Below, in pieces: positions 1-46,720 of a stretch of 51,972 nucleotides of DNA. The notes below the pieces were generated by a model. It searched no databases, was not told the DNA's origin, and saw only the letters and a list, made by a program, of their open reading frames with translations. Source of the stretch: an archaeon (lineage in GTDB: Archaea > B1Sed10-29 > WALL01 > WAMD01); contig JAJRYR010000036.1 in assembly GCA_024275655.1 (NCBI GenBank), positions 1 to 51,972 of the forward strand. Reading direction: 5' to 3'. The position numbers were made by a program, and so were the translations under genes. Within the stretch, counting starts at the first letter, position 1. The number at the start of each line of letters is the position of its first letter.

Positions 1-338
1 ACTAGATCGTACTGGTCCTGGAGCTGGCAGGTGCTGGACTTGAAGCAGTTTGTTGGAGCGCTACTCACTGTACCTCCAGAACTCTCTATTGGGGCACATG
101 TTGCACAGGGTTTTATCTTTCCAGGTGCAGTGGACTGAGTTCCATCGTAGGGAGAATTGTAATCCAGGAGTTCAATTCCTGCAAGAGAACAAGAATACTT
201 GTCCTTTGCAACATTGGTGGAGGTCTTGGCAGGATTCATCAAATTATGAGCAACTAGAATAACCACGACAGCTATTGCCAGGATGGCTGCGAGTATGAGC
301 AAGTACTCCAGTGCTCCTTGACCTTTTCTAGCTTTCAT
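1..338 (-). CDS. Class III signal peptide (archaeal type IV pilin/archaellin-like) protein; 3' end runs off the window
   Basis: The minus-strand ATG at 338 opens a frame with no stop through position 1. That is why it is absent from the ORF track. The N-terminus MKARKGQGALEYLLILAAILAIAVVVILVA is a canonical prepilin-peptidase (PibD/FlaK) substrate motif: K-G-Q/A then a hydrophobic helix. Confidence 0.5.
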   Translation of the reverse strand, partial: MKARKGQGALEYLLILAAILAIAVVVILVAHNLMNPAKTSTNVAKDKYSCSLAGIELLDYNSPYDGTQSTAPGKIKPCATCAPIESSGGTVSSAPTNCFKSSTCQLQDQYDL

Positions 339-393
339 CAGGAAAAGTAATGAAAATGGATTATTTAAATGTAATCCAGAAAGGAAAGAATTA

Positions 394-446
394 GAGGGGG
401 CCCTTAGCGGGCCCCAAGATAGAAGCTCCCTCTCCCCCTTCTCCCC
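394..446. repeat. Copy 1 of a GC hairpin (GGGGCCC-ttagc-GGGCCCC) plus a CT-rich tract ctccctctccccc, in the divergent intergenic region
   Basis: The sequence tagagggggcccttagcgggcccc followed by agctccctctccccc is seen directly. The same two modules recur at 1516-1640. Confidence 0.6.
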
Positions 447-9160: not shown

Positions 9161-10365
9161 CACATCCACCGTCTCAATGCCTCTCTGGATCTAATCCTAG
9201 CCAACAACTCACTACTCTTTCTCCACTCTCTCTTCACTTCAAGTCTTCTGTCTATCTCGTTCAAAGCTGCCTCCAAAGAATCAAATTTAACCGGCTTTGA
9301 GGCCATGGCCCTCCTAACGTTCTCCCTTATCTGCCAAACACCAACAGGAGCCCAGTACTCTGGGGTTATTTCCCTCACCACCAGGGCTTTTGCTTGCCTC
9401 TTTATTTTGGCTAGATACTCTAGAATTGCCAGCCTGGCTGCGTAGTATGCACCAGTAACATTGTCTGCATAACTGGTCCTTCCCTCGTAGGGCTCGTAGT
9501 CCGCTAGGATTACTGGTCGTTCTCCGCCAGTGACCCATATACAGCCAGGGTCATAGATTTCCACGTTGTCAAATTCCCACTTACCTGGGATCAGTAAGAC
9601 CTCAAACCTGTTGCCCAAATAGTAGCTCTCAAAGAGCAAGTAATCGCCGATCTCCTGAAAGTCCTTTACCCTAGCGATTAATGCCTTTCCCAGGGTATCA
9701 TCTGTCGCAGTGATGCTCCACCTAGTAGGAACTAGTTTTTTATCAATTCCCAAAGTTCCTATGGAAAGCAAGTTCGTGAGTTTGCTAACTGGTACGCCGT
9801 GCTGGTACAAGTAGAACAGAGCTTCTCCCGCCTTCATTTCGTCGTTCACAACTTCATCCACCTTTCTGGGTATCTTCGGGTTGTCCACAAGTTCCAGGCC
9901 CAAAATCTCTCCACTGGGCCCATGGGGAGCAGTGATGTCGTTCCAGGATACTTCGGTCTTAGGCTCTTTCTTGAACGCCAGCTCCATTTCCACGCTATCC
10001 CTTGCCATCACGGCCAATTGCATTTCATACAGGTGCCTGGGTGGATCCTTTGCCCAGTCTATGCGCATTTCCTCTTTTCCCCTTATTAGTTGAGACCTCA
10101 TCTGCAGTATCTCCTCTAGGGACTTTCCATACCAGGCCTCGGGAAGATCTAAAAAACTAGCATCTTCTGTTCTTGCAACCAATGGACCAACAAAAACTTT
10201 TGGATACCCTATCCTCCCAACAAGAACGCTTGGGGGGGAATTGGCATCTATGATCCTGGAGATGCTTTTCAAACTAGCCAAAACCCTAGCTCTCTCTAGC
10301 AGAGGGCATTTAGGCCTCCCACACAAAAGCTTGGTTCCTTTGCACTTAACACAAAGTTCTGGCAC
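9160..10365 (-). CDS. Nre-family (NreA-like) predicted DNA-repair protein with an N-terminal C4 zinc ribbon
   Basis: N-terminus MPELCVKCKGTKLLCGRPKCPLL and ~400 aa length. The assignment is from memory of the Nre_N/Nre_C architecture. Confidence 0.45.
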   Translation of the reverse strand: MPELCVKCKGTKLLCGRPKCPLLERARVLASLKSISRIIDANSPPSVLVGRIGYPKVFVGPLVARTEDASFLDLPEAWYGKSLEEILQMRSQLIRGKEEMRIDWAKDPPRHLYEMQLAVMARDSVEMELAFKKEPKTEVSWNDITAPHGPSGEILGLELVDNPKIPRKVDEVVNDEMKAGEALFYLYQHGVPVSKLTNLLSIGTLGIDKKLVPTRWSITATDDTLGKALIARVKDFQEIGDYLLFESYYLGNRFEVLLIPGKWEFDNVEIYDPGCIWVTGGERPVILADYEPYEGRTSYADNVTGAYYAARLAILEYLAKIKRQAKALVVREITPEYWAPVGVWQIRENVRRAMASKPVKFDSLEAALNEIDRRLEVKREWRKSSELLARIRSREALRRWM

Positions 10366-16074: not shown

Positions 16075-16152
16075 GGGCGTGTAGCTCAGCCAGGATAGAG
16101 CGGGGGCCTTCTAAGCCTCAGGTCGGGGGTTCAAATCCCCCCACGCCCACCA
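16075..16152 (+). tRNA. tRNA-Arg (anticodon TCT), CCA encoded
   Basis: Hand-folded cloverleaf: acceptor GGGCGUG/CACGCCC, D stem GCUC/GAGC, anticodon stem GGGGC/GCCUC with loop CUUCUAA, T arm GGGGG-UUCAAAU-CCCCC, discriminator A, then CCA. Confidence 0.9.
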
Positions 16153-16184: not shown

Positions 16185-16661
16185 ATGATCCTCATGTCCT
16201 GGAACGTAAATGGGATCAGGGCTTGCTATAGAAATGGGTTTCTAGATTTCTTGAAGAAGTACAAACCATAATTCGACAGGGAAATCCACAAATACCTGGA
16301 CGAGCTGAGGAAGAAAAAGCCTGTGGTCTCGACTGGTGACTTTAACGTTGCCCACAGGGAGATCGATCTAGCAAACCCAAAACAGAATGTTAAGAACGCC
16401 GGGTTCACTCCAGAGGAGAGAGCATGGATGGACGAATTCCTCTCAGACGGTTGGGTTGATACGTTCAGATTATTCATGAAAGAGGATGGATATTACACTT
16501 GGTGGACATACAGATTCAATGCTAGAGCTAAGAACATAGGATGGCGTATCGATTACTTTATAGTTTCAGAGGATCTAGCCCCCAGGGTGAAGAGAAGCTG
16601 GATCCTCTCAGAGGTCTATGGCTCGGATCACGCACCTATTGGCCTAGAACTGGAAGTATGA
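16185..16661 (+). pseudogene. xth: Exodeoxyribonuclease III (Xth, AP endonuclease) remnant with an internal ~100-aa deletion and an in-frame TAA
   Basis: ATG 16185 gives MILMSWNVNGIRACYRNGFLDFLKKYKP*. The same frame then continues FDREIHKYLDELRKKKPVVSTGDFNVAHREIDLA...WILSEVYGSDHAPIGLELEV. These are the N-terminal and C-terminal conserved blocks of ExoIII. The middle third is missing. Confidence 0.65.
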
Positions 16662-16664
16662 TTG

Positions 16665-18320
16665 TCATAGTAATCTCTCATATTTCACTCTCCCATTGGC
16701 TTCAGAAGCTAACTTGAACCCCTTCTTCTCCAGTAGTTTCCTAACAGCAACATTACCCTTAAAAGTCTCTGCATATATCCTGAGTCTTCTATCTGGTTGT
16801 TTAAGTAAGGAATCTAATAGTCTAGACCCCAGCCCCTTTCTACGATAATTACTGTGTACACCTATCCCAAGCTCGACTGTATTCTTATCCTTGAAGACCA
16901 AGTTAGCAAATCCAACAACAGCATTTTTGCCCAAATCCCTAGCAATGACAACAATACCTGTCTCTAGCTCTTTCATTTTTAGAAGAGACGTTGCTAAGTC
17001 ATTGCAATCCCTAATTGACATATTGCTTGTCTCTTTTAAGTTGTTACATAATCGGACCAAACTTGGAAAGTCTCTATAACTGGGGGTATCAATGATTATT
17101 GGGTCTACATGCGTTCTATAATAGTAATGGATCAAATACTTTAGAGTCTCATTTACAAACTTACAAAAGTCCTCATCAATTATGCCTACTTTTCCTGTTT
17201 TTAATAAAGCATGGTATGGACAAACTCCACCACATATACCCAATGCTGGACAAGACAAACATTTCTCATAATTAATAGTGGCAATATTCCGTATCTTCTC
17301 TAGTGATTTCTTATAATCCGAGATATTAGAGAAAACAAAGCCTGGTGTACCTTCAGCAACAAATGCTTGGCATCCTCCGATATTTCCATCAGGACCAAAA
17401 TCTATTGCTTGAAATGCAATCCAAGGACAATCAAAAAACTTGAACCTTTCTTCTAGAAAGGCCTTTAATCTTCTAAAACTTCTATCTTCATACATGCCCA
17501 ATTGTATGGCTCGTACCATCGCTTTATACAAAAAGTAGGCAGTAGTCTTAGGATCTGGAGATAACCTGTCATTATAACCTGTCCTAAGCATGATATTAAA
17601 TCCAAATCCTTTCACGCCCAGAGAATGGAAAAAATCAACAATATCTGGCAACCTATAAACGTTATGTGTGTGTATGGTGGCAGATATGTTAACATTAACG
17701 CCCTGGGCCTTAAGTATCGCTATGCCCCGAAGAGCATCGTAAAAAGCCTTCTCTCCTTTAGGATATATCCTATGGGTATTATCAAAGAATCCGCCATCCA
17801 GAGATACAGATACTTGGGTATTTGTCTCATAAACTTTTTCTGCAAACTCTCTATCAACAAGCGTGCCATTTGTTATTATTTGCTTTTTTATGGTATTATC
17901 AAGATTCTCTAAGAAATAGTAAAGAACGTCCTTGTTTGTAAGGGGGTCCCCCCCATAGAAAACAACTTTTTCAGGTTTAATGGTATTTAAGGTAGTTAAT
18001 ACTCTCTGTGCTGTCTCCATATCCATAGATTTTCTTCTCGCAATTGGTTCAATATAACAATACTCACAAGCCAAATTGCAATTGCCGGTTAAAACAACAT
18101 AAGATATGTATGGTCTGAAGTTCCTATTTCTGATTTTGTGTACTCTATGACTATCTGAATCGGACAAATGTAGTACCCTAGAAACCTCTACCTCAAAATT
18201 TGACTTTATTCTCTCAAATTCATCTAAAGTAAAATATACCTTCTTCAACGTCAAGTTGTCTATTACTGCTACATATCCTGCTCCAGGATTATAAAGGACA
18301 TACAATCGCTTACTCATCAT
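16665..18320 (-). CDS. Radical SAM / SPASM-domain peptide maturase fused to a C-terminal GNAT acetyltransferase
   Basis: The radical-SAM motif is CNLACEYC (Cx3Cx2C). The SPASM motif is C-x2-C-x5-C-x3-C in CLSCPALGICGGVC, with upstream CPW...GGC. The C-terminal ~110 aa have GNAT motif A, RRKGLGSRLLDSLL. There is an N-terminal ~85-aa RRE-like extension. Confidence 0.75.
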   Translation of the reverse strand: MMSKRLYVLYNPGAGYVAVIDNLTLKKVYFTLDEFERIKSNFEVEVSRVLHLSDSDSHRVHKIRNRNFRPYISYVVLTGNCNLACEYCYIEPIARRKSMDMETAQRVLTTLNTIKPEKVVFYGGDPLTNKDVLYYFLENLDNTIKKQIITNGTLVDREFAEKVYETNTQVSVSLDGGFFDNTHRIYPKGEKAFYDALRGIAILKAQGVNVNISATIHTHNVYRLPDIVDFFHSLGVKGFGFNIMLRTGYNDRLSPDPKTTAYFLYKAMVRAIQLGMYEDRSFRRLKAFLEERFKFFDCPWIAFQAIDFGPDGNIGGCQAFVAEGTPGFVFSNISDYKKSLEKIRNIATINYEKCLSCPALGICGGVCPYHALLKTGKVGIIDEDFCKFVNETLKYLIHYYYRTHVDPIIIDTPSYRDFPSLVRLCNNLKETSNMSIRDCNDLATSLLKMKELETGIVVIARDLGKNAVVGFANLVFKDKNTVELGIGVHSNYRRKGLGSRLLDSLLKQPDRRLRIYAETFKGNVAVRKLLEKKGFKLASEANGRVKYERLL

Positions 18321-18335
18321 TCATCAACACAAAAT

Positions 18336-18545
18336 TCAGTCGTCACTAACACAGACACAGTCACAGTCGCAGTATGATCCACCGCCGCAGTCACAATCCC
18401 CACTACAATCCCCATAATCACAATCGCTACACACATCACAATCCAAACCTACAAAAACTTTTGTCCATGTCTCAGGTTTTGACACATACATATGAAACAT
18501 CCCCACGATATTATTTACCTTTTGGACTTTAAATAACTTTCTCAT
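18336..18545 (-). CDS. Candidate RiPP precursor peptide: 34-aa leader plus a 35-aa Cys/Asp-rich core
   Basis: It lies 15 bp upstream of the rSAM/SPASM gene and is co-oriented with it. The core DCDVCSDCDYGDCSGDCDCGGGSYCDCDCVCVSDD has 10 Cys and 11 Asp in repeated DC dipeptides. Confidence 0.55.
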   Translation of the reverse strand: MRKLFKVQKVNNIVGMFHMYVSKPETWTKVFVGLDCDVCSDCDYGDCSGDCDCGGGSYCDCDCVCVSDD

Positions 18546-18668
18546 GATTAGACAATCCTATTAAGGATATACTAAAAAGCGCTGGATCCACTTCGGGCTA
18601 GCAGTTCGATTCAGACAAGACTAGCGAAAACAAAATCTTTAAAAACTGGTTTTTCGTTATTTACAAAC

Positions 18669-18962
18669 ATGGGACTGGGAAACTTTGGTCAGAAGCTGGT
18701 TGCGTCTGCTAAGCTTTCTAGCATGGAGAAATATGGCTGGGCATACATGGAAGACTATCTGATTGTGAGAGAGAACCTGGCAGGAGAAGTGCAAATAGAA
18801 GAACTGGGAGACGGCAGAATTAGAGTGACATACAACGGCAGAACCTTTGAAGTCAAGATTAGAGACTGGGCAGGGAAGTCAATGGAGAAAGCTGGAAAGC
18901 CAAAGATAATATCTGGAGAAAGACAGGGTTGGGTTTCCATCTGGGACGTGAACCGCCACTAA
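18669..18962 (+). CDS. Hypothetical small protein
   Basis: ORF divergent from the RiPP-like operon. Confidence 0.3.
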   Translation: MGLGNFGQKLVASAKLSSMEKYGWAYMEDYLIVRENLAGEVQIEELGDGRIRVTYNGRTFEVKIRDWAGKSMEKAGKPKIISGERQGWVSIWDVNRH

Positions 18963-21334
18963 ACCTTTATTCTGACTGGTTCTCCTGTTAGTGCATTCAC
19001 ACATACCCTACTCTCTTTACCCTTTGAAACAAGCTTGAAAACATACACCGGCATGTATATGGTTTCCACGGACTCTACCTTGGTCTCTCCGAATATCTCA
19101 GGAACATCGCTAACATACTCTAAGCCAACATTCGGTCTCTTTATCCTAGCTCTATCCAATTCCTGCATTACCAAATAGGTCTCCAAACCTGTAAATGGCA
19201 GTGTATCAATTCTAGTAGGCAGATCAAATTTCTTTGCCAAGTAGTACTCCTTGCCACGCGAAGTTTTTTCATATTTCACTACTCCTCTCTCAACCAGCTC
19301 TTCAGCTTTCATTCTTGCGGTGGTGTCTGTAACACCAATAGCTGCTGCCAACGCTCTGGCGGATGCCTTCTTCCCTTTCATGAGAGCGATTATCACTCCC
19401 CTCTGACTTCTATCCAGTTTTGCAAATAAAGACAATCCCCTGGTCCTAGAAAGCTTACCCCTATCTAGGTAAAGCAACTCCCCAGTGATGCCATCCACGT
19501 AACAAACACTTTTCTTGTAGCCTCCCTTCTCAAACAGCTTGTAGTTCACCTTGTAAACTGGCCAGTACTCCAAACTGTACCCTGCAATCATCTCCTCCGA
19601 CCCAAACAATCCAAGAAACTTCTTCTTCCTCAACTTCTCCACGATCTCGTACGCCTGCCTCTCCGTGAGCAAGGGCTTGAAAGCTCTTATGCTGGTTACT
19701 TCTTCCTTGGTCTCCTTGGGAACTAGGTCTTCCTCCAAAACCTCCTCCACCTTCTCTTCCTTCTCCAAAGCTAGATAACCATCCTCAGAGACGTATCCTT
19801 CGTCCAAAAGCCTTGAGATGACATCTGAGGGATCTATCTTTGTCTTGTACCTCTTGTTTATGGTTTTAACTATCTCCTTCAAAGTACTCTCATGAATCCT
19901 CTTCCTATCTGCAATGTGCTTCTTTATCATTTTGAGCAAGGCCTCAAACACTTGCTCCTGGTCCATTGGCGTCTCCATGTCCACGCTACGGGATTCCCTT
20001 CCCTCGTGTTGTGAGAATCTAGGTCTAACTTTGAGCACGAATGCTCTACTTGTGTGATCACTCCTATCTCCAACAATACAGTGACCAATTGGCAAAGTCT
20101 TTATGAACCTAGGATTTTTGTACTCCGAGGGGATCATGGTGGGCATTCTCTTCATAACTGCCTTTATGTCATCATCAAAAACAAGTTTATGGCAAAGGAG
20201 AATATCCAACTGGGAGAGAACATGAGTGTCTATTGCTCCCGGTTGCTGGGTTGCAAAGACAAGGCTACATCCTGGCCTTCTTCCTTGTTTCACATATTCA
20301 GTCAACGGATCAGTGGCGGGCGTCTTTTTCCCACCACTGGGAATGAGAGTGTGAGCCTCATCTATGAAAAGCCACACTGGAGGTATGTTTGCCTCCAACT
20401 CATCTATATCTGCAAACTTTTTCATACTGGTTTGCCTGGCGGCCAACTTTCTAGCCTGGAGTATTTTCCTAGCCAATATCCCAATAACCAGGCTGGTAAC
20501 ATTCTCCTCTAAAAATGAAACATCTATAACTGAAATTTCTCCTTCTCTAGCAAGCTCTATCAGACTGGTTCCCTCTTCGGTGAATATTCCCCAACCCTTT
20601 GCCGCCTCAAACCTAGATATCAAGGCTCTCCTGGAATCTGCCTTAAATCCTTTTTTGGCAGAGGCCAATTCTTTATCTTTTTCTAGGCAGTGTATCAAAT
20701 CGTCTAAGCTATAGGTCTCCGGTTTTGGTTTCACTTTCTTGCCATCTACAGTCTCGTAACCTTCTTTGACCTTGTGTATAACCTTTTCTAGAAGAAGGCC
20801 TGTGGGTGAGAACCTATCTATGTCAAATGTCAAGCACCAATCATCCACAGTCAAATCTGCTGGCCTCAAAGCGAAGGTTTTGTCATAAGTGCCCTTTGGG
20901 AGCTGTTTCCTCACGCCATGAGGAACAAAAACAGTTACGTGATCCACTCCCTTGGGCATTAAACCCATGCGAATTAGCTCATCAACTTCTTTCTCATCCT
21001 GGTTCGGATACTTCATTGACCAGTAAATCCCTATCGGATCAATGATTATGCTGGCCACGTTTGGATTCTTGAAAACTAGCTCTTCAGCGATAACCCCCAA
21101 GGAGTAACTTTTTCCAGAACCTCTGGCCCCTACAATGAATATGACGTGCGGGGCGATGGCATCCAAGTAAACTGGTTTCCCGTAACCTTCCTCCTCTGAC
21201 AGTATCCCAAGGAGCAAAGCTCCTTCCTGACCGTACTTCTCGTGAATGCTCTTGGAACGGCCAATGAATATCGCTGTCTCTGCCTCATCGGACAGGGCCT
21301 CTAACTTCGTATTTGGTTGTGGTTTAAACTCCAT
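18959..21334 (-). CDS. HerA/FtsK-like (DUF87-type) P-loop ATPase with a C-terminal winged-helix region
   Basis: Walker A GARGSGKS, Walker B WLFIDEAH and the ATQQPGAID motif typical of HerA/VirB4-like ATPases. C-terminal ...RGVIIALMKGKKASARALAAAIGVTDTTARMKAEELVERGVV is wHTH-like. Confidence 0.55.
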   Translation of the reverse strand: MEFKPQPNTKLEALSDEAETAIFIGRSKSIHEKYGQEGALLLGILSEEEGYGKPVYLDAIAPHVIFIVGARGSGKSYSLGVIAEELVFKNPNVASIIIDPIGIYWSMKYPNQDEKEVDELIRMGLMPKGVDHVTVFVPHGVRKQLPKGTYDKTFALRPADLTVDDWCLTFDIDRFSPTGLLLEKVIHKVKEGYETVDGKKVKPKPETYSLDDLIHCLEKDKELASAKKGFKADSRRALISRFEAAKGWGIFTEEGTSLIELAREGEISVIDVSFLEENVTSLVIGILARKILQARKLAARQTSMKKFADIDELEANIPPVWLFIDEAHTLIPSGGKKTPATDPLTEYVKQGRRPGCSLVFATQQPGAIDTHVLSQLDILLCHKLVFDDDIKAVMKRMPTMIPSEYKNPRFIKTLPIGHCIVGDRSDHTSRAFVLKVRPRFSQHEGRESRSVDMETPMDQEQVFEALLKMIKKHIADRKRIHESTLKEIVKTINKRYKTKIDPSDVISRLLDEGYVSEDGYLALEKEEKVEEVLEEDLVPKETKEEVTSIRAFKPLLTERQAYEIVEKLRKKKFLGLFGSEEMIAGYSLEYWPVYKVNYKLFEKGGYKKSVCYVDGITGELLYLDRGKLSRTRGLSLFAKLDRSQRGVIIALMKGKKASARALAAAIGVTDTTARMKAEELVERGVVKYEKTSRGKEYYLAKKFDLPTRIDTLPFTGLETYLVMQELDRARIKRPNVGLEYVSDVPEIFGETKVESVETIYMPVYVFKLVSKGKESRVCVNALTGEPVRIKV

Positions 21335-23614: not shown

Positions 23615-25315
23615 TCACCCCAATCTAATTTTGCCCTTCTTCCTTTTTAATACTACAAAGTACGCAACCACCGCAATAATAACAATGAACAAGAATCCAA
23701 CAAATAACAGCAACCCCACGGCAACTAGCAACCAGAACGTTGGGATATTGGATATGTCCAGGGAGAATGATGGCCCGCTACCTTTAATCCCCAGGTAGTA
23801 AGTGCCATTCTTGTTAAAAACTTTCAGATAGTTTGTCCCAGGAACTAGTGTTATGCTTCCAGATTTTGGAACGTAGTCCGGTTCGCATGCGTTCTCATTG
23901 CAGATTTCCACTTTAACGGGATATCCCTTTGCATTCAGATAAGCTTGTATGTACTCTGCTTTCAGAGTTACTTCAGAATCAGAGGTATACTCGATTATCT
24001 CAGAACTGCCATTCTCTACCTTTTTGGAAGCAACTTCATCCAGCAGTCCCGCACCAGGACCAATATCCTTGATTAAGTGGCAGTTGACACACATGTAACC
24101 TGGTTCTACAGATGCGTTATCATCGCACTCTTCTGACCCTGCAACTATTCCATCACCACATATGGGTTGCATGGACTTACAATCGCTAGAACACTTGAAC
24201 CCCAAAGGAACGTTGTTGCCATCACACAGCTCTCCTTCTACAACCATCCCATCGCCACATATAGGGACTAAGGATTTACAATCACTGGAACATTCATACC
24301 CTGGTTTCACACTTGAACCGTCGCAGACCTCACCATCAACTACTTTCCCATCGCCACACACCGGTTCTAGCTTGCAGTCCTCGGTGCACTTGAATCCATA
24401 TGGTACACCATCATTCCCATCACATTCCTCATTTTGCCCTAGCATATTTGGGGTCTGCTTGATGCCATCCCCACAGTATGCTGGAGCTGGTAGGTACTTG
24501 CCATCTTCAACATCGTACACGTGATCCAACGGAAGCGAGTAGGATACTGTCTCATTTGCATCATATATCTTGATGTCAGATATTTTCCATAAGTATTCCC
24601 TGTTGTTCTCTATGTCCGCACCCATTATAACCAGGGTCAGATTGTCCCTCATACACTCTCCCGCATCTATTTTCATAACAACTGTGTGCCACTTCTCCTG
24701 CTCTATTGGCTCGGAATCGTACTTGTTCACAGCCCCGGCGTCGCCAAGTGCCTTCCCGTCAAACAGCCAACCCTTGTACGTTGTTTCAGACATGCAGTAA
24801 ATGTACTTGTCCAATGGGCCTATGTAGTTACATTCCACGTGAATGTGGCACATCTCACCATTCAACGGGAACCAGGAAAATGAATCTGGATTAAACCCTG
24901 GGTTCTCCAAGCTGGTGCCATTGTTTCCAAAGTACAAGAAGGAGAAAATGTTCGGCCCATCGTTTGCGGGTTCCTCTCCTGCTGCATTCCCTGCATTCCC
25001 CAAATCAAGATCAATGTTTGGAGCATAGACCCAAACCTTGAAGGATATGTAAAACTCGTCCGCAGGTGGGTGTGGGATAACCTTCCATATCCTCCAAATG
25101 CCCGTGAACTCGTCAGAGGTTTTCACTTCTAGGTATAAGCCTTGGTCAGGATCATATTTAAGCTGCCTATCAACATAGCCATCTCCATTGGCGAAGTGGA
25201 CTGTCTTGAATTGCCAGTCAGTACCCAAGTACTGGGAGTAGTTCAACCCATAAGCCAACACACCTAAGAACAACAGCGAGAGTATAGCATATCCCCTGAC
25301 ACTCATTTTTATCAC
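23615..25315 (-). CDS. Surface protein with a signal peptide, 4-5 tandem myxococcus-type cysteine-rich repeats (DUF4215-like CGDGxxxxxExCDxG) and a C-terminal TM anchor
   Basis: Repeats CGDGKVVDGEVCDGSS..., CGDGMVVEGELCDGNN... and CGDGIVAGSEECDDNA... lie at ~24070-24500. C-terminal hydrophobic helix plus KRKKGKIRLG. Confidence 0.6.
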   Translation of the reverse strand: MIKMSVRGYAILSLLFLGVLAYGLNYSQYLGTDWQFKTVHFANGDGYVDRQLKYDPDQGLYLEVKTSDEFTGIWRIWKVIPHPPADEFYISFKVWVYAPNIDLDLGNAGNAAGEEPANDGPNIFSFLYFGNNGTSLENPGFNPDSFSWFPLNGEMCHIHVECNYIGPLDKYIYCMSETTYKGWLFDGKALGDAGAVNKYDSEPIEQEKWHTVVMKIDAGECMRDNLTLVIMGADIENNREYLWKISDIKIYDANETVSYSLPLDHVYDVEDGKYLPAPAYCGDGIKQTPNMLGQNEECDGNDGVPYGFKCTEDCKLEPVCGDGKVVDGEVCDGSSVKPGYECSSDCKSLVPICGDGMVVEGELCDGNNVPLGFKCSSDCKSMQPICGDGIVAGSEECDDNASVEPGYMCVNCHLIKDIGPGAGLLDEVASKKVENGSSEIIEYTSDSEVTLKAEYIQAYLNAKGYPVKVEICNENACEPDYVPKSGSITLVPGTNYLKVFNKNGTYYLGIKGSGPSFSLDISNIPTFWLLVAVGLLLFVGFLFIVIIAVVAYFVVLKRKKGKIRLG

Positions 25316-42996: not shown

Positions 42997-44106
42997 ATGC
43001 TGGGGTTGACACCACTTGCAGAAAAGGCGATAAAAAAATTGAAGGAAGTTCACAAACCCGAAATAGACAAAAGATTAAGAGCTGCCCTAGAGAAAGAAAG
43101 AGAGTACATACCAAACGACCATCCTCTATTCCACGATGTTATTGATAAGTTGCTGGACTTCAACATGCGAGGTGGAAAGCGATTAAGGCCATCATTCATT
43201 GTGGAGGGGTATAGGTGTGTTGGTGGAAAGGACATGGATGCCATTTATGATGCCAGCCTGGTTATTGAAGGTAGCGAGGCCTGGCTCCTAATTCACGATG
43301 ACATAATGGATGATGACACCCTGAGAAGAGGGAAACCAACGATGCATGTCATGTACGAAAATGAACTCAAGAAGAGGGGTGTCCAGTTACCTCCAGAAAA
43401 GCTGAAACACATGGGGATATCCCTAGGCATGACCGTGGGGGATCTGCAAGCTGTTCTCACATACGAATGGCTGACAAAACCAGACTTTCCCAGGGAGCTG
43501 AAAGAAAAGGCACTGCAGAGGTATAACTTGGTCTTGAGATTAACTTGCTACGGGCAGATCCTAGATGTCATGGCCGAAACTATGCCACCAGAAGAAATCA
43601 AAGAGGAGGACGTGCTGCTGATTCACAGCTTGAAAACAAGCGCATACACATTGTGGGGTCCCCTTCAGATAGGCGCAATATTGGGGAATGCCACAGACAA
43701 GCAACTGGAAATCTTCTACAACTATGGCTACCCACTCGGTATAGCATTCCAGCTCCAAGATGACATTCTAGGTCTGTTTGGTGACGTCAAGAAAACTGGA
43801 AAACCTGCCCATTCAGACCTAAAAGAAGGAAAAAGAACCTTGTTGATAATCAAAGCTCTGGAAAATGCAACACCAGAGCAAAAGAAGAGATTACTTGAGA
43901 TATGGGGGAACAAGAACTTAACAGACGAGGATGCAGAGGAAGCTAGGGAGATAGTAAGAGAAACTGGCTCACTGGATTACAATAGAGAGCTAGCAAGAAA
44001 GCTGGCAGAAGAAGGGATGGCCGCAATGGAAGCCGCAGACTTTGATCCAGAGGGAAAAGAGTACTTGCTGGGAATTGCAGAGTTCCTCATAAACAGGGAG
44101 GTCTAG
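42997..44106 (+). CDS. trans-Isoprenyl diphosphate synthase (geranylgeranyl diphosphate synthase-like)
   Basis: FARM LIHDDIMDDD and SARM FQLQDDILG aspartate-rich motifs. Confidence 0.75.
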   Translation: MLGLTPLAEKAIKKLKEVHKPEIDKRLRAALEKEREYIPNDHPLFHDVIDKLLDFNMRGGKRLRPSFIVEGYRCVGGKDMDAIYDASLVIEGSEAWLLIHDDIMDDDTLRRGKPTMHVMYENELKKRGVQLPPEKLKHMGISLGMTVGDLQAVLTYEWLTKPDFPRELKEKALQRYNLVLRLTCYGQILDVMAETMPPEEIKEEDVLLIHSLKTSAYTLWGPLQIGAILGNATDKQLEIFYNYGYPLGIAFQLQDDILGLFGDVKKTGKPAHSDLKEGKRTLLIIKALENATPEQKKRLLEIWGNKNLTDEDAEEAREIVRETGSLDYNRELARKLAEEGMAAMEAADFDPEGKEYLLGIAEFLINREV

Positions 44107-45365
44107 GTTACTAGTCTTCCCCTTGTAAGCAGGTAGGGTGTGATCAAATCACCCCACCTATAATCTTCTTTGCTCGCAAGTTCTACTTGCGAGAGCACAT
44201 CAAACAAGTTCCCCACAAATACGCACCCTTTAACCGGGATTCTCTTTTCCCCATTTATCAGTATTCCATGATCAACGGTTAATGTGAAATCTCCAGTCTT
44301 CTCATTTATGGTGTGGTACCCCATCAAGGATCTCAATACTATGCAGTTGTCCCAACCATCCATGCTCTCCCTATCTGGGAAATCCACAACTATGTTAGTA
44401 ACATCTATTGATATCTTTGATCCTCCGTGCCTGAATCCATTTCCGGTGGATTCTGCCCTAACTTTCGTGGCGGTTATAGTATCATAAATAAAAGTTTTCA
44501 AAACGCCCTTATCTAACAACACCTTTTTCTTTGTCGGGACTCCTTCATCATCACTCGAAGTTGAACCTGGGAAATAGGGGATCCAGGGGTCCTCAACTAT
44601 TGTCAATTCCCCTAGAACTTTTTTACCAAGCTTTCCTGTCCAGGGACTGGTCTTCCTCCTCACCTCATCCCCATCAATCCAGTCCAGGATAACAGACAAA
44701 AACTCGTCAATTATGTCTGGATGCAAAGCAATCTTTCCATCCCACCCCATCTTTTTTGCCTTTGAGTTCTCAACAGCTTCCCTCCCCGCGTTTTTCCCCA
44801 GTTCTCTTGGAGCAAAATCTAGAACTCCTGACTCCCAAAAATCAAATCCTGAGCCAGTTCCTCTTTTTGCTCCAAATCCAAGAGATATTCCATTCTCCTT
44901 GTCAGAAAAGTTCACACCATTTGAATTTTCTATATATGTGTGGGTTTCACTAACACTGACCTCGCCCTGCATTGGTTCTGCCCCAGTCTCCTTTATTCCA
45001 TCTATACCCTCAAGAACTATATTCACAAGGTCTGCGAACTCCAGCTCAGAGACCTGCTTTGACCAGGTTTTCACCTTCTGGTAATCTTTCTTTTCTGGAA
45101 AGTGATAGCCCTTTACAGGTTCTGTGTACTTGGTCATTTTGACTGCACTCTTCAATGCTCTATCAAATTCCTTCTCTAGGTCAAAGGAGACCATTGAAAC
45201 TCTCCCCTTCACATTCAGCCTAAGTCCATATCCTTGAAATATCTTCTCCAAACCTGCCTCTATCATGTCCCTATTATACCTAGCCTCAATTGTTCTCCCT
45301 TTCATGAAAAATATCTCTGCCTCCCCAAACCTCTCTGCCCTTCTGAGCATTGATTCCAAGCTCAT
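44103..45365 (-). CDS. pmbA: TldE/PmbA-family metalloprotease subunit
   Basis: Paralog of the upstream TldD with PmbA/TldD fold features. Overlapping stop and start suggest an operon. Confidence 0.65.
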   Translation of the reverse strand: MSLESMLRRAERFGEAEIFFMKGRTIEARYNRDMIEAGLEKIFQGYGLRLNVKGRVSMVSFDLEKEFDRALKSAVKMTKYTEPVKGYHFPEKKDYQKVKTWSKQVSELEFADLVNIVLEGIDGIKETGAEPMQGEVSVSETHTYIENSNGVNFSDKENGISLGFGAKRGTGSGFDFWESGVLDFAPRELGKNAGREAVENSKAKKMGWDGKIALHPDIIDEFLSVILDWIDGDEVRRKTSPWTGKLGKKVLGELTIVEDPWIPYFPGSTSSDDEGVPTKKKVLLDKGVLKTFIYDTITATKVRAESTGNGFRHGGSKISIDVTNIVVDFPDRESMDGWDNCIVLRSLMGYHTINEKTGDFTLTVDHGILINGEKRIPVKGCVFVGNLFDVLSQVELASKEDYRWGDLITPYLLTRGRLVT

Positions 45366-46720
45366 CCCAGCAACACCTCTTTAACAAAAACGTGTGGTCC
45401 CCCATCCCCTACTGGGACGCTTTGCCCGAATTTTCCACAAAGACCTGCTCCCCCAACCTTCAAGTCTTTTTCCACTTTCTCAACATTGTGGAGTATATCT
45501 AAAAAGTTCCCGGAAAAGGTAACATCTCTTAACATCTGCTTTATTTCCCCATCTTCTATCCAATAGCCATGCTGGGCTGTGAACTGGAAGAACCCAGAGT
45601 TTGGATCAGTACTTCCCCCAGTAGAGCTGTATATGTAAACCCCTTCCTTTATATCTTCCAGCATTTCCTCTAGTGAATAATCTCCCTTCTCAAAGAATGT
45701 GTTGCTCATCCTAACCAGCGGAAATCTTGAGACCCCACCGGCCCTAGCATTTCCAGTAGATCTAGTCCCCAACTCGCTGGCCGTTTCCCTTGAGTGCATG
45801 AAGCCCTTCAAAACCCCACTTTCTATCAAAACCGTTCTTTGACCAGGGACGCCCTCATAATCATAGCCATAGCTACCATAACCTCTCGGGATAGTCGCGT
45901 CATCAATTATGGTCACGTGTTCTGACCCTATCCTCTTTCCAAGCTTATCCTTGAGTATTGAGGTTCCATTTACGATTTCGTCCGCTTCGCAGGCATGGCC
46001 GACTGCCTCATGAGCAAAAACTCCTGCTGCATGGGGATCTAGGATCGCGGGGTACTTACCAGCCGGAGCTCTCTTTGCCTTCAATAGGTTTTTGGCATTG
46101 TTCACTGCTTCTTGGAACTTTCCATCTATCTTGTCAAATATCTCAAGGCCATAAAGGCCTCCAATCGATTCAAATGCAGATATAACAAAGTTCGATTTGG
46201 CTGTTGCGGATAGGAATATTCTAGTCCTGGGATACGACTGGGAAATGAAGGCCCCCTCCGTATTCAAGTAAAGCCGTTTAGCCTTCACATCAACATAATA
46301 AATTTGGATGTCCTTCACCTTACTAGGTATCTCTAAAGATCTGTAGGTCTCCTGTACCAATCCTGCCTTCTCGTCAATGCTCACGTCCAAGCTCTTCCTG
46401 GGTCTAACAACCCACTTGTCCTGGTAGACCTTCTCTTTTGAAAGCTTTGATCTCATGGGCCTTGGATTTGCCTTTGCTAGCTTTACTGCCTCCTTTAATA
46501 CTAGCTCCCAGTTCCTTGGATCAGTTGAGAAGGAAAAGCCAAAAGAGCCTTTAATCAAAACTCTAATTCCTATTCCAACATTTGCAGAAACCATAAGGTC
46601 CCTCACATTTCCATTTTCGAGCAATACCTTGTTCCTCCAGCTTCTCAACAAATTTGCCTCTGCAAATTCGTACCTCTCTAGTTCCCTCTGAAGCTTGTCA
46701 AGATCTAGACCAAAATCCAT
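45362..46720 (-). CDS. tldD: TldD metalloprotease
   Basis: FAHEAVGHACEAD is the HExxxH TldD signature. Confidence 0.75.
   Translation of the reverse strand: MDFGLDLDKLQRELERYEFAEANLLRSWRNKVLLENGNVRDLMVSANVGIGIRVLIKGSFGFSFSTDPRNWELVLKEAVKLAKANPRPMRSKLSKEKVYQDKWVVRPRKSLDVSIDEKAGLVQETYRSLEIPSKVKDIQIYYVDVKAKRLYLNTEGAFISQSYPRTRIFLSATAKSNFVISAFESIGGLYGLEIFDKIDGKFQEAVNNAKNLLKAKRAPAGKYPAILDPHAAGVFAHEAVGHACEADEIVNGTSILKDKLGKRIGSEHVTIIDDATIPRGYGSYGYDYEGVPGQRTVLIESGVLKGFMHSRETASELGTRSTGNARAGGVSRFPLVRMSNTFFEKGDYSLEEMLEDIKEGVYIYSSTGGSTDPNSGFFQFTAQHGYWIEDGEIKQMLRDVTFSGNFLDILHNVEKVEKDLKVGGAGLCGKFGQSVPVGDGGPHVFVKEVLLG

Follow-up and report, generated by a model that had tools for sequence, protein, structure and literature searches.

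A rare archaeal peptide-maturase gene pair related to known RiPP systems, with a radical-SAM/SPASM enzyme fused to a GNAT acetyltransferase

Radical-SAM/SPASM maturases that act on Cys-rich peptides are already known from SCIFF, ranthipeptide, sactipeptide, and FibroRumin systems. QhpD makes thioethers between Cys and Asp or Glu. PapB likewise joins the sulfur of Cys to Asp or Glu by thioethers and accepts Cys-Xn-Asp substrates with n = 0 to 6 (PMC9413430). Archaeal radical-SAM RiPP clusters have been flagged in bulk by genome mining, and the number of archaeal RiPP products identified is small (PMC12144867). Our literature search found no paper on FibroRumin or TIGR04136, and a search for radical-SAM-SPASM-GNAT fusions in RiPP biosynthesis suggested none, as judged by titles and abstracts.

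Here, we describe a locus within a window of 51,972 nucleotides (the whole stretch of DNA that was analyzed), which is archaeal by its GatE and LonB. The closest named relatives of this GatE are 48 to 50% identical and are spread over several phyla. Two co-oriented ORFs on the minus strand, of 69 aa (18336..18545) and 551 aa (16665..18320), are separated by 15 nt, as described in an earlier note on this DNA. The features of the locus are as follows.

18492..18545, minus strand: 5' extension of the 69-aa ORF, probably untranslated; non-homologous to the related locus L010
18527..18536, minus strand: TATA-like TTATTTAAAG within the 5' extension, a putative promoter element
18501..18506, minus strand: GTGGGG, Shine-Dalgarno (SD)-like element, 9 nt before the M19 ATG
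18336..18491, minus strand: precursor peptide gene, 51 aa plus stop, with the M19 start assigned by homology with L010 and by conserved N termini; predicted leader MYVSKPETWTKVFVGL, then a 35-aa core DCDVCSDCDYGDCSGDCDCGGGSYCDCDCVCVSDD (10 Cys, 11 Asp)
18321..18335, minus strand: 15-nt spacer ATTTTGTGTTGATGA from the peptide stop to the maturase start
16665..18320, minus strand: whole maturase gene, 551 aa plus stop (N-terminal domain, radical SAM, SPASM, GNAT)
18111..18320, minus strand: N-terminal domain (residues 1 to 70), the presumed leader-docking domain
17451..18107, minus strand: radical-SAM core (residues ~72 to 290), with C81-x3-C85-x2-C88 to hold the SAM-cleaving [4Fe-4S] cluster and a GGDP/GGEP motif
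17106..17429, minus strand: SPASM domain (residues ~298 to 405) with seven Cys, assigned from invariant Cys and fold matches
16668..17099, minus strand: C-terminal GNAT domain (residues ~408 to 551), with acetyl-CoA motif A, R493-R-K-G-L-G

The peptide and maturase ORFs share one reading frame, and the 15-nt spacer suggests co-transcription and translational coupling of the two genes. The spacer of L010 is identical to that of the window, and the other related loci also have a short spacer and the same orientation. A tRNA-Arg gene adjoins the locus, a degraded exoIII gene is present, and the GC content is 0.37 to 0.38 at the locus versus 0.42 to 0.47 in the flanks. A mobile element was considered and rejected: the tRNA has no att-like repeat, IMG/VR holds no relatives, plasmid relatives are only about 25 to 28% identical, and L010 shares both flanks with the window. 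A defense system was also rejected, as the resemblance to viperin and HerA given by PADLOC is no more than generic.

The last 35 residues of the peptide comprise 10 Cys, 11 Asp, 5 Gly, 4 Ser, 3 Val, and 2 Tyr, and this composition count bears out the earlier description of a Cys/Asp/Gly/Ser core with seven DC dipeptides. Cys and Asp, which together make up 60% of the core, occur in a conserved pattern. Their spacing is irregular (0 to 3 residues, or alternating), with no CX3D repeat. The six frames of the whole window hold 571 segments of 40 aa or more that lack a stop; of these, the peptide is the extreme outlier, with 10 Cys and 9 Asp in a 35-aa stretch, and the runner-up has 7 Cys. In L010, the closest relative (93% identity), nucleotide homology to the window begins exactly at the M19 ATG (18491), and the DNA further upstream is unrelated. 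All complete homologous peptides have the N terminus M-[YIF]-[VI]-S-[KQ]. It coincides with the first ATG/GTG for L007, L010, and L017; for L020 it is found at M4, an internal Met. Because the L010 homology begins at M19 and the N-terminal motif is conserved among homologues, the precursor is most likely 51 aa from M19, not 69 aa, and the first 18 residues of the longer reading are probably not translated. The 69-aa length and the hydrophobic/basic leader given in the earlier note are thus probably wrong; the leader is ~16 aa and opens with the family motif M-[YIF]-[VI]-S-K-P.

Database searches with the peptide itself retrieved little. The window peptide had no match in NCBIfam, including TIGR04135 even at E ≤ 10. 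A precursor profile built from four precursors and searched against 5.8 billion proteins matched solely the already known 33-aa fragment from L008. The peptides of L007, L017, L020, and L021 were without a TIGR04135 match (cutoff, 45 bits) at E ≤ 0.01; bacterial control peptides scored 50.8 and 67.3 bits, and a third (L003) scored 25.9 bits, below the cutoff. Small-ORF calling is too patchy for a peptide homology route, with gene callers having truncated or missed the peptide in several loci.

These gaps in gene calling, together with the absence of the peptide from the protein database and the compositionally simple DNA, would fit a small ORF that is no gene but a low-complexity TGTGAY repeat, open by chance. 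However, the frame, the Cys/Asp pattern, and the nonrepetitive leader motif persist in independent loci of the core clade, six or seven in number, in which enzyme identity over the catalytic region falls as low as ~44%. Clear archaeal TATA boxes (TTTATATA/TTTATATT) lie upstream of the peptide genes of L010 and L021, where SD elements also precede the ORF. Between the window and L010, the peptide gene differs by 14 synonymous and 6 nonsynonymous codon changes, none of which replaces a Cys or an Asp; changes in Cys and Asp codons are exclusively synonymous. Across four loci, both synonymous codons are used in 11 of the 16 invariant Cys/Asp columns. By this codon evidence, purifying selection protects the Cys and Asp codons. 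The comparative data have effectively refuted a chance ORF, which we regard as scarcely credible.

An exhaustive HMM search recovered only about 15 cluster representatives of the radical-SAM-GNAT fusion among 1.84 billion. A co-oriented Cys-rich peptide gene lies directly upstream of the enzyme in eight of eight related loci with readable upstream DNA (L010, L009, L007/L008, L017, L020, L019, and L021). Because this pairing recurs in every related locus examined, the pair is a rare, uncharacterized relative of known RiPP systems. Enzyme identity to the window over the catalytic region runs from 96% down to 44% in the core-clade loci and is lower for P0255 of L021. The six or seven closest peptides share the motifs M-[YIF]-[VI]-S-K, CxxC[DE][YW]x[DW]CGG, and DCDCxC. 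In L017, leader Lys5 is replaced by Gln, and the core of L021, the most distant fused relative, is Asp-poor. A stretch of 7 G interrupts the peptide ORF of L007/L008, possibly through an error of assembly or because the gene there is a true pseudogene. Cys-rich peptides are likewise encoded upstream in unfused relatives (bacterial FibroRumin loci and L013 to L015). The loci with readable context (the window and L017) are archaeal. Scans for further loci returned only an already known contig from metagenomes and only bacterial FibroRumin loci from genomes.

The proposal that GNAT fusions form one clade proved partly true. Ten fused proteins fall into one clade together with two unfused or truncated members; outside it, P0255, P0260, and P0287 group together, and the nearest neighbors of P0254 and P0253 are mainly unfused. 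This grouping, taken from a neighbor-joining tree and pairwise identities, is not robust. Of 14 full-length fused homologues, 13 retain an intact acetyl-CoA motif.

The surroundings of these loci also bear on a different role for the peptide, that of an unmodified, metallothionein-like metal- or Fe-S-binding peptide, with the radical-SAM-GNAT enzyme acting on another substrate and the adjacency reflecting co-regulation only. CxC and CxxC spacing, as found here, is metallothionein-like, and no protease or exporter is linked to the peptide. SufBD, SufC-like, and NBP35/ParA-like genes lie within 4 kb in L007, and a cation-efflux gene lies near L014. Relatives come from metagenome samples, at least two of them labeled REYS20, a label from which metal-rich hydrothermal vents are guessed. 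However, the immediate upstream pairing holds in eight of eight loci whose neighborhoods are otherwise unrelated, and the spacers are short enough for translational coupling. Moreover, the leader motif is conserved specifically in the fused family, and every one of the nearest enzyme families consists of peptide maturases whose Cys-rich substrates are encoded alongside. We therefore consider an unmodified metal-binding peptide improbable.

AF2 modeled the maturase with a mean pLDDT of 91.5, and its nearest solved folds are CteB, anSME, ChlB, and TigE. Pfam Radical_SAM (PF04055) matches residues 75 to 220 at 67.7 bits (cutoff, 29.5), and C81, C85, and C88 of the CX3CX2C motif are invariant in 65 homologues. 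The same holds for the seven SPASM cysteines (C298; C317, within GNIGGC; C354-x2-C357-x5-C363-x3-C367; and C386), which by their conservation imply two auxiliary [4Fe-4S] clusters. Both Cys motifs had been correctly read in the earlier note, as had the C-terminal GNAT, for which Pfam Acetyltransf_1 matches residues 455 to 535 at 47.1 bits, above its cutoff, and both motif A ([RQ]-x-x-G-x-[GA]) and a complete fold are present. Against curated models, the GNAT shows generic similarity, the best being RimI-like (30.7 bits versus a cutoff of 86.4). The N-terminal domain consists of three beta-strands (residues 6 to 11, 16 to 21, and 27 to 31), a long helix (32 to 50), and a short helix. An RRE-like extension had been proposed here, and the winged-helix fold of an RRE has three strands and three helices; sequence searches gave no PqqD/RRE match in Pfam (E ≤ 1) or, for residues 1 to 70, in NCBIfam (E ≤ 10), and a model of the isolated domain gave no significant match.

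Among NCBIfam models, the maturase scored highest against FibroRumin TIGR04136 (149.8 bits; E = 1e-43), AmcB (110 bits), and PapB (102.6 bits), with CbpB after these. The TIGR04136 cutoff of 400 bits was not reached (a true member used as a control, P0021, scored 776.5 bits), nor was the cutoff of 340 bits for the PapB-family model NF047865. The ranthipeptide membership initially suggested is thus not supported, and FibroRumin is the closest family. The same is true of the suggested SCIFF class: the 25 best matches of the window protein do not include the SCIFF maturase model TIGR03974, against whose cutoff of 425 bits the fused relative P0246 scores 75.3. The anSME model TIGR03942 gave 71.5 bits (cutoff, 349), less than FibroRumin, AmcB, or PapB; the enzyme is thus closest neither to anSME nor to cofactor enzymes. 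The nearest curated families of the fused relatives P0246 and P0255 are likewise peptide maturases, with PapB second-best for both. Because the enzyme fails every curated family cutoff, its chemistry is not transferable by homology.

One variant keeps the same cassette but has the enzyme make a triceptide-like cyclophane, in which a C-C bond links the conserved aromatic residue to the residue at +2 in [YW]-x-[DW], leaving the cysteines free or in disulfides and metal-binding. However, a Cys-rich core is the one feature that unites all members of the enzyme family, with or without the fusion and from archaea as well as bacteria. Most of the positions that do not vary within the core clade are Cys, and the maturase is far below the cutoffs of AmcB and the other cyclophane models. 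A cyclophane product is, in our estimate, unlikely.

Our preferred reading, to which we assign a probability of roughly 0.6, is that the two genes are co-transcribed and form a self-contained RiPP cassette in an uncultivated archaeon. The first gene would supply the 51-aa precursor, with its ~16-aa leader and 35-aa Cys/Asp core, and the N-terminal beta-sheet/helix domain of the second gene product would dock the leader. The radical-SAM/SPASM portion, which would carry two auxiliary [4Fe-4S] clusters besides a single SAM cluster, would then remove hydrogen atoms from the core by means of 5'-deoxyadenosyl radicals. Cys sulfurs would subsequently be bridged to carbons of nearby residues as thioethers, iteratively and at up to about 9 to 10 Cys. 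In the Asp-rich clade, Asp beta-carbons would be the likeliest acceptors, following the example of PapB and QhpD; the data fit alpha-carbon (sactionine) links equally well. Adjacent or near-adjacent Cys/Asp pairs are feasible substrates because PapB accepts n = 0 to 6 (PMC9413430), but Asp as an obligatory acceptor is unsupported by the family comparison, since FibroRumin and L021 cores are Asp-poor.

The GNAT domain would acetylate an amine of the same peptide from acetyl-CoA, the best guesses being the alpha-amine of the conserved Met-aromatic/aliphatic N terminus or leader Lys5, possibly for maturation or self-protection. Given that no dedicated protease or exporter is linked to the cassette, the product may retain the leader and function intracellularly, which is also the suspicion for the SCIFF cassette. 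We note that a missing protease and transporter would be unusual for a secreted RiPP. The product may be a compact, acidic metal- or redox-active peptide.

A precursor could also be sacrificial, yielding a small cofactor or metabolite by the logic of PQQ or mycofactocin, with a few residues cross-linked and the rest degraded. However, accessory peptidases or oxidases are linked in none of the loci, and conservation covers the full 35-aa core rather than a short C-terminal stub; we hold a sacrificial precursor to be highly improbable.

Overall, the compact peptide-plus-maturase locus of the earlier note is upheld by the pairing, the enzyme families, and the selection on the peptide, and none of the outcomes named there as counting against it, such as an absence of the pairing elsewhere, was found. 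A bolder extension of the RiPP cassette is doubtful but worth stating. By itself, the fused enzyme might turn the 51-aa peptide into a mini-protein that is acetylated, strongly acidic, and hyper-cross-linked, its 35 core residues holding up to about 9 to 10 Cys-derived bridges, possibly with Cys-Asp links at spacings so far not known from nature. It might thereby define a new, mainly archaeal RiPP class made by a single bifunctional polypeptide. The role of its product might be to handle metals or redox at hydrothermal vents, not to act as an antibiotic. If true, this would make it the first radical-SAM RiPP from archaea that is accessible to experiment.

What sets the pair apart is a core with 60% Cys and Asp in a conserved pattern, an acetyltransferase permanently fused to the maturase (two modification steps per polypeptide), and a very narrow distribution. 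Because the cassette is only ~1.9 kb and has two genes, it lends itself unusually well to heterologous reconstitution, which would reveal the chemistry of the whole uncharacterized FibroRumin-related family. The fused enzyme could also serve as a compact tool enzyme for cross-linking and acetylation.

Finally, the locus can be placed among the known systems. It resembles FibroRumin in gene order, in which the radical-SAM/SPASM gene is immediately preceded by one or two genes for precursors of ~50 aa, and in cores that carry Cys at alternating positions (e.g., CTGCMCNCRCSCSGG and CACVACNSCTCACSC). In contrast, FibroRumin maturases are ~30% identical to that of the window and lack the GNAT. FibroRumin cores carry Ser, Thr, Ala, Asn, and Arg where the archaeal core has Asp and end in an acidic-aromatic tail (DFEWE) absent from the archaeal peptide; the leaders also differ, and the fetched loci are all bacterial (gut, rumen, and related sources). 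The PapB/freyrasin system shares a radical-SAM/SPASM enzyme and a substrate that, here, is made of Cys and Asp, but PapB is without a GNAT and the archaeal core has no regular Cys-X3-Asp repeat. SCIFF and its maturase CteB are more remote, with 16 to 18% identity, a different peptide family, and no GNAT. Unlike the GNATs of other RiPP pathways, such as the C-terminal domain of MccE and the lasso-peptide acyltransferases, the GNAT described here is fused to the radical-SAM/SPASM maturase itself.

The two ORFs of the cassette, which runs on the minus strand, were read from the window as follows.

18336..18545, minus strand: small ORF, 69 aa as read
16665..18320, minus strand: enzyme ORF, 551 aa, 15 nt downstream of the small ORF

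In the small ORF, the C-terminal 35 residues, DCDVCSDCDYGDCSGDCDCGGGSYCDCDCVCVSDD, contain seven DC dipeptides and are made up of Asp (11), Cys (10), Gly (5), Ser (4), Val (3), and Tyr (2). Of the other stop-free segments of 40 aa or longer, taken from all window frames, none approaches this composition; the runner-up has 7 Cys and 0 Asp per 35 residues. The enzyme contains the motifs C81-x3-C85-x2-C88 and C354-x2-C357-x5-C363-x3-C367 and matches Pfam Radical_SAM (residues 75-220) and GNAT (Acetyltransf_1, residues 455-535). ORF reading, motif positions, and Pfam matches thus bear out the earlier description of both ORFs, their spacing, the Cys/Asp core with its DC dipeptides, the rSAM and SPASM motifs, and the GNAT domain. 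In a 65-sequence alignment, the three SAM-cluster Cys are invariant, as are C298, C317, C354, C357, C363, C367, and C386; the SPASM motif is therefore complete, and its seven Cys imply two auxiliary [4Fe-4S] clusters. A confident AlphaFold2 model (mean pLDDT, 91.5) comprises an N-terminal unit (residues 1-65) built from three strands plus one long helix, a radical-SAM barrel followed by the SPASM domain, and a complete GNAT domain (residues 408-551). Its solved-structure matches, each with two values, are CteB, a thioether-forming SCIFF maturase (32.3; 380), anSME (31.1; 326), ChlB (31.0; 326), and TigE (29.4; 364).

Comparison with L010, the locus of the closest relative (enzyme 96% identical at the protein level), revises the start of the peptide. 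The DNA of the two loci is 93% identical over an alignment that opens at the Met19 ATG of the 69-aa ORF (18491) and runs through the enzyme gene into the downstream flank. Directly upstream of this ATG, window positions 18492..18632 (141 nt) are unrelated to L010 positions 87..396 (310 nt), and homology returns at 81% past this segment. The L010 peptide ORF begins MYVSKPE, with TTTATATA and the Shine-Dalgarno element GGGTGA ahead of it, and the other complete homologous peptides start MYISK, MFISQ, and MIISK (the last from M4). Therefore, the precursor is most likely 51 aa long (18336..18491), and the first 18 residues of the 69-aa ORF are probably untranslated; the earlier note's 69-aa start, with its "hydrophobic/basic" leader, is probably wrong. 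The window has a GTGGGG element 9 nt ahead of the Met19 ATG, and we infer a promoter upstream of the peptide gene. The TATA-like TTATTTAAAG, located within the 69-aa ORF, is weaker than the canonical box of L010; given this and the divergent upstream DNA, expression may differ between strains. Translational coupling of the precursor gene to the enzyme gene is suggested. The peptide and maturase ORFs (16668..18491, minus strand) share one reading frame, separated only by TGA-ATT-TTG-TGT-TGA-TGA, a spacer identical in L010. Because the two genes are in different frames in L009, another relative, the common frame is probably a coincidence and not a sign of read-through fusion.

In every locus with readable upstream DNA, a co-oriented Cys-rich ORF lies directly upstream of the enzyme gene. 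The peptides of the related loci are as follows.

L010: MYVSKPERWEKVFVGLDCDVCSDCDYEDCGGDCDCEGGSYCDCDCVCVGDD
L009 (cut by the contig end): ...SKSLEPTDVCQSCDYGDCGGDCDCGGGSYCDCDCSCSVKED
L007/L008 (broken by a run of 7 G): MYISKSEKLEEFNKMDPDDLCSVCDYTDCGG(Q)CDCDCGDTICSDCDCDCVCTGPND
L017: MFISQPVPIKKLDDTTMDVCDVCDYSWCGGKPDVNGDDCDCICIGSD
L020: (MGK)MIISKPIKYRVGEISDICSECEWDWCGGHCDCSGGSDCDCDCSCIGPSD
L019 (cut by the contig end): ...SCGGEDCDCLCFGSQL
L021 (most distant locus): MRFLVISKEGTAAHDCGTCGICNCYPDPDSCHVSNITVRASPA

Core-clade peptides share an N-terminal M-[YIF]-[VI]-S-[KQ]-[PS], a CxxC[DE][YW]x[DW]CGG motif, and DCDCxC-x-G close to the C-terminus. The window and L010 peptide genes differ by 14 synonymous and 6 nonsynonymous codon changes, with no replacement at Cys or Asp; across four loci, both synonymous codons are used in 11/16 invariant Cys/Asp columns. 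Since the Cys/Asp codons vary only synonymously, a DNA repeat artifact was ruled out as the origin of the small ORF, and the peptide is, judging from its codons, under protein-level purifying selection. Selection is shown on Cys, Asp, and the N-terminal leader motif. Neighbors of the gene pair are otherwise unrelated across loci, with no recurring protease, transporter, or regulator; the functional unit is thus predicted to be a two-gene cassette. In the 51%-identical relative, the 7-G run (L007 ~9887..9893, and the same place in L008) splits the precursor ORF into two frames; once one G is removed, the ORF encodes an uninterrupted 56-aa peptide. The run may reflect a sequencing error, mark a pseudogene, or act as a slippery homopolymer, and both assemblies may stem from the same reads.

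Fused enzymes are rare. Besides one fragment, a word-indexed search covering 5.8 billion proteins retrieved just three fused relatives of full length (96%, 51%, and 46% identity); the remaining matches were ~30%-identical unfused enzymes, including a CPR-bacterial member. Searching 1.84 billion cluster representatives exhaustively with an HMM added about ten full-length fusions (P0246-P0251, P0253-P0255, P0260, and P0287) and fragments. Ten fused proteins, whose catalytic regions are 38 to 57% identical to that of the window protein, form one clade; P0255, P0260, and P0287 cluster together, and the nearest neighbors of P0254 and P0253 are mainly unfused, in a neighbor-joining tree that is not robust. 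Cys-rich peptides (e.g., ...VKCCGCRGGF, ...CQGSCSSCTACSGPCACNCHH..., and ...CAGMCRGSCSCPTGHCRCRIS...) likewise lie directly upstream of unfused rSAM/SPASM relatives lacking the GNAT (L013, L014, and L015; ~30-34% identical), one of which its source assigns to Pacearchaeota. Together with the CPR-bacterial member, these relatives point to a much larger uncharacterized superfamily, one whose CxC-type RiPP cassettes occur in both archaea and candidate-phyla bacteria.

By its gene content, the window, which spans an entire NCBI contig of 51,972 bp, is archaeal: it encodes GatE (659 bits on TIGR00134), archaeal LonB, and an archaeal-type methionine adenosyltransferase, along with a DUF460 protein and a HerA-like ATPase. 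The closest named relatives of GatE are 48 to 50% identical and span several phyla; eight further sequences reach 62 to 78%. L017 has an archaeal context (CDC48, tRNA-intron endonuclease, and SAMP2), L021 has an archaeal-type TATA box, and the host of the cassette family is archaeal wherever context is readable. Two relatives come from metagenome samples labeled REYS20, a label that we read as denoting hydrothermal vents. The GC content of the cassette locus is 0.37-0.38, versus 0.42-0.47 in the flanks. A mobile element was rejected: the analysis found no att-like repeats, viral relatives, or close plasmid relatives, and the flanks are common to L010.

Several neighboring features were also recorded.

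16075..16152: tRNA-Arg(TCT), adjoining the next gene
16185..16661, plus strand: degraded exonuclease III (Xth-type) gene
18669..18962, plus strand: 97-aa ORF, no family match, divergent from the peptide gene and sharing its intergenic region
18959..21334, minus strand: HerA/DUF87-type ATPase, 791 aa
21411..22601, plus strand: 396-aa ORF, no family match
23615..25315, minus strand: 566-aa protein with DUF4215 Cys-rich repeats (three DNA repeat copies spaced 99 nt, 24120..24369)
44103..46720, minus strand: TldD gene (452 aa) and adjacent 420-aa ORF, presumed to be its PmbA partner

The exonuclease III remnant (159 aa; full-length proteins have ~250 aa) retains a 28-aa N-terminal piece (MILMSWNVNG...), has an in-frame stop at 16269, and lacks ~90 aa of its middle. 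It converges on the maturase gene, 3 nt from the maturase stop, and L010 has the same 3' end. C-terminal HTH matches of the ATPase are weak, all below Pfam cutoffs, and PADLOC returned only generic HerA similarity for this region. In E. coli, maturation of microcin B17 involves leader processing by TldD/PmbA proteases; these common housekeeping genes lie ~26 kb from the cassette, and we claim no link.

Besides motifs for one SAM cluster and two auxiliary clusters, the enzyme has an acetyl-CoA-binding GNAT that is intact. The leader would dock on its N-terminal domain, the rSAM/SPASM domain would iteratively build thioether bridges from core Cys, and the GNAT would acetylate an amine on the same peptide. 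Because the leader motif is located at the very N-terminus and the Met-aromatic/aliphatic start resembles NatC/E/F-type substrates, N-alpha-acetylation of the precursor is suggested. Lys5 of the 51-aa precursor is another candidate, against which counts its replacement by Gln in L017; an immunity role like that of MccE is possible. As for the sulfur acceptor, Asp C-beta is attractive because Asp is nearly as abundant as Cys, the two are conserved together, and PapB tolerates Cys-Xn-Asp with n = 0 to 6 (PMC9413430). The Asp-poor cores of FibroRumin and L021 count against it, and alpha-carbon (sactionine) links to any residue are equally possible. Cyclophane chemistry would fit the aromatic-x-[D/W] triplet conserved in 7/7 cores readable there and the enzyme's similarity to AmcB (HMM) and ChlB (structural), but we consider it improbable. 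With no protease or exporter linked, the product may stay intracellular with its leader; we speculate that it is a metal- or redox-active peptide.

Taken together, comparative genomics supports the finding as real and upholds the central claim of the earlier note, a compact RiPP-like cassette whose maturase is an rSAM/SPASM-GNAT fusion. The ORF start, the RRE label of the N-terminal extension, and the ranthipeptide assignment in that note call for correction or stay tentative. Archaeal rSAM RiPP clusters have already been flagged in bulk by genome mining, although few of their products have been identified (PMC12144867), so the finding is moderately surprising; the cassette is small and directly testable. 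In NCBIfam, the top-ranked model is the FibroRumin maturase (TIGR04136; 149.8 bits, E = 1e-43, cutoff 400), followed by AmcB (110.2, cutoff 425), PapB (102.6, cutoff 340), CbpB (99.3, cutoff 375), and anSME (TIGR03942; 71.5, cutoff 349), all far under the curated cutoffs; a true FibroRumin maturase scored 776 bits. Peptide maturases thus rank ahead of anSME, and the PapB score does not sustain the proposed ranthipeptide assignment. The TIGR04135 precursor model was passed by 2/3 bacterial FibroRumin peptides tested and by none of the archaeal peptides tested. Therefore, the cassette would operate like FibroRumin, SCIFF, or ranthipeptide cassettes and, on these scores, belong to none. FibroRumin appears to be without known chemistry, as a literature search turned up no paper mentioning the name. 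The bacterial FibroRumin loci examined have one or two ~50-aa precursor genes directly upstream of the maturase, as in the window, and Cys at alternating core positions (e.g., CTGCMCNCRCSCSGG and CACVACNSCTCACSC), but these cores are Asp-poor, in contrast to the Cys/Asp core described here. The comparison supports a rare sister family of the FibroRumin system, distinguished by an Asp/Cys core and a fused acetyltransferase.
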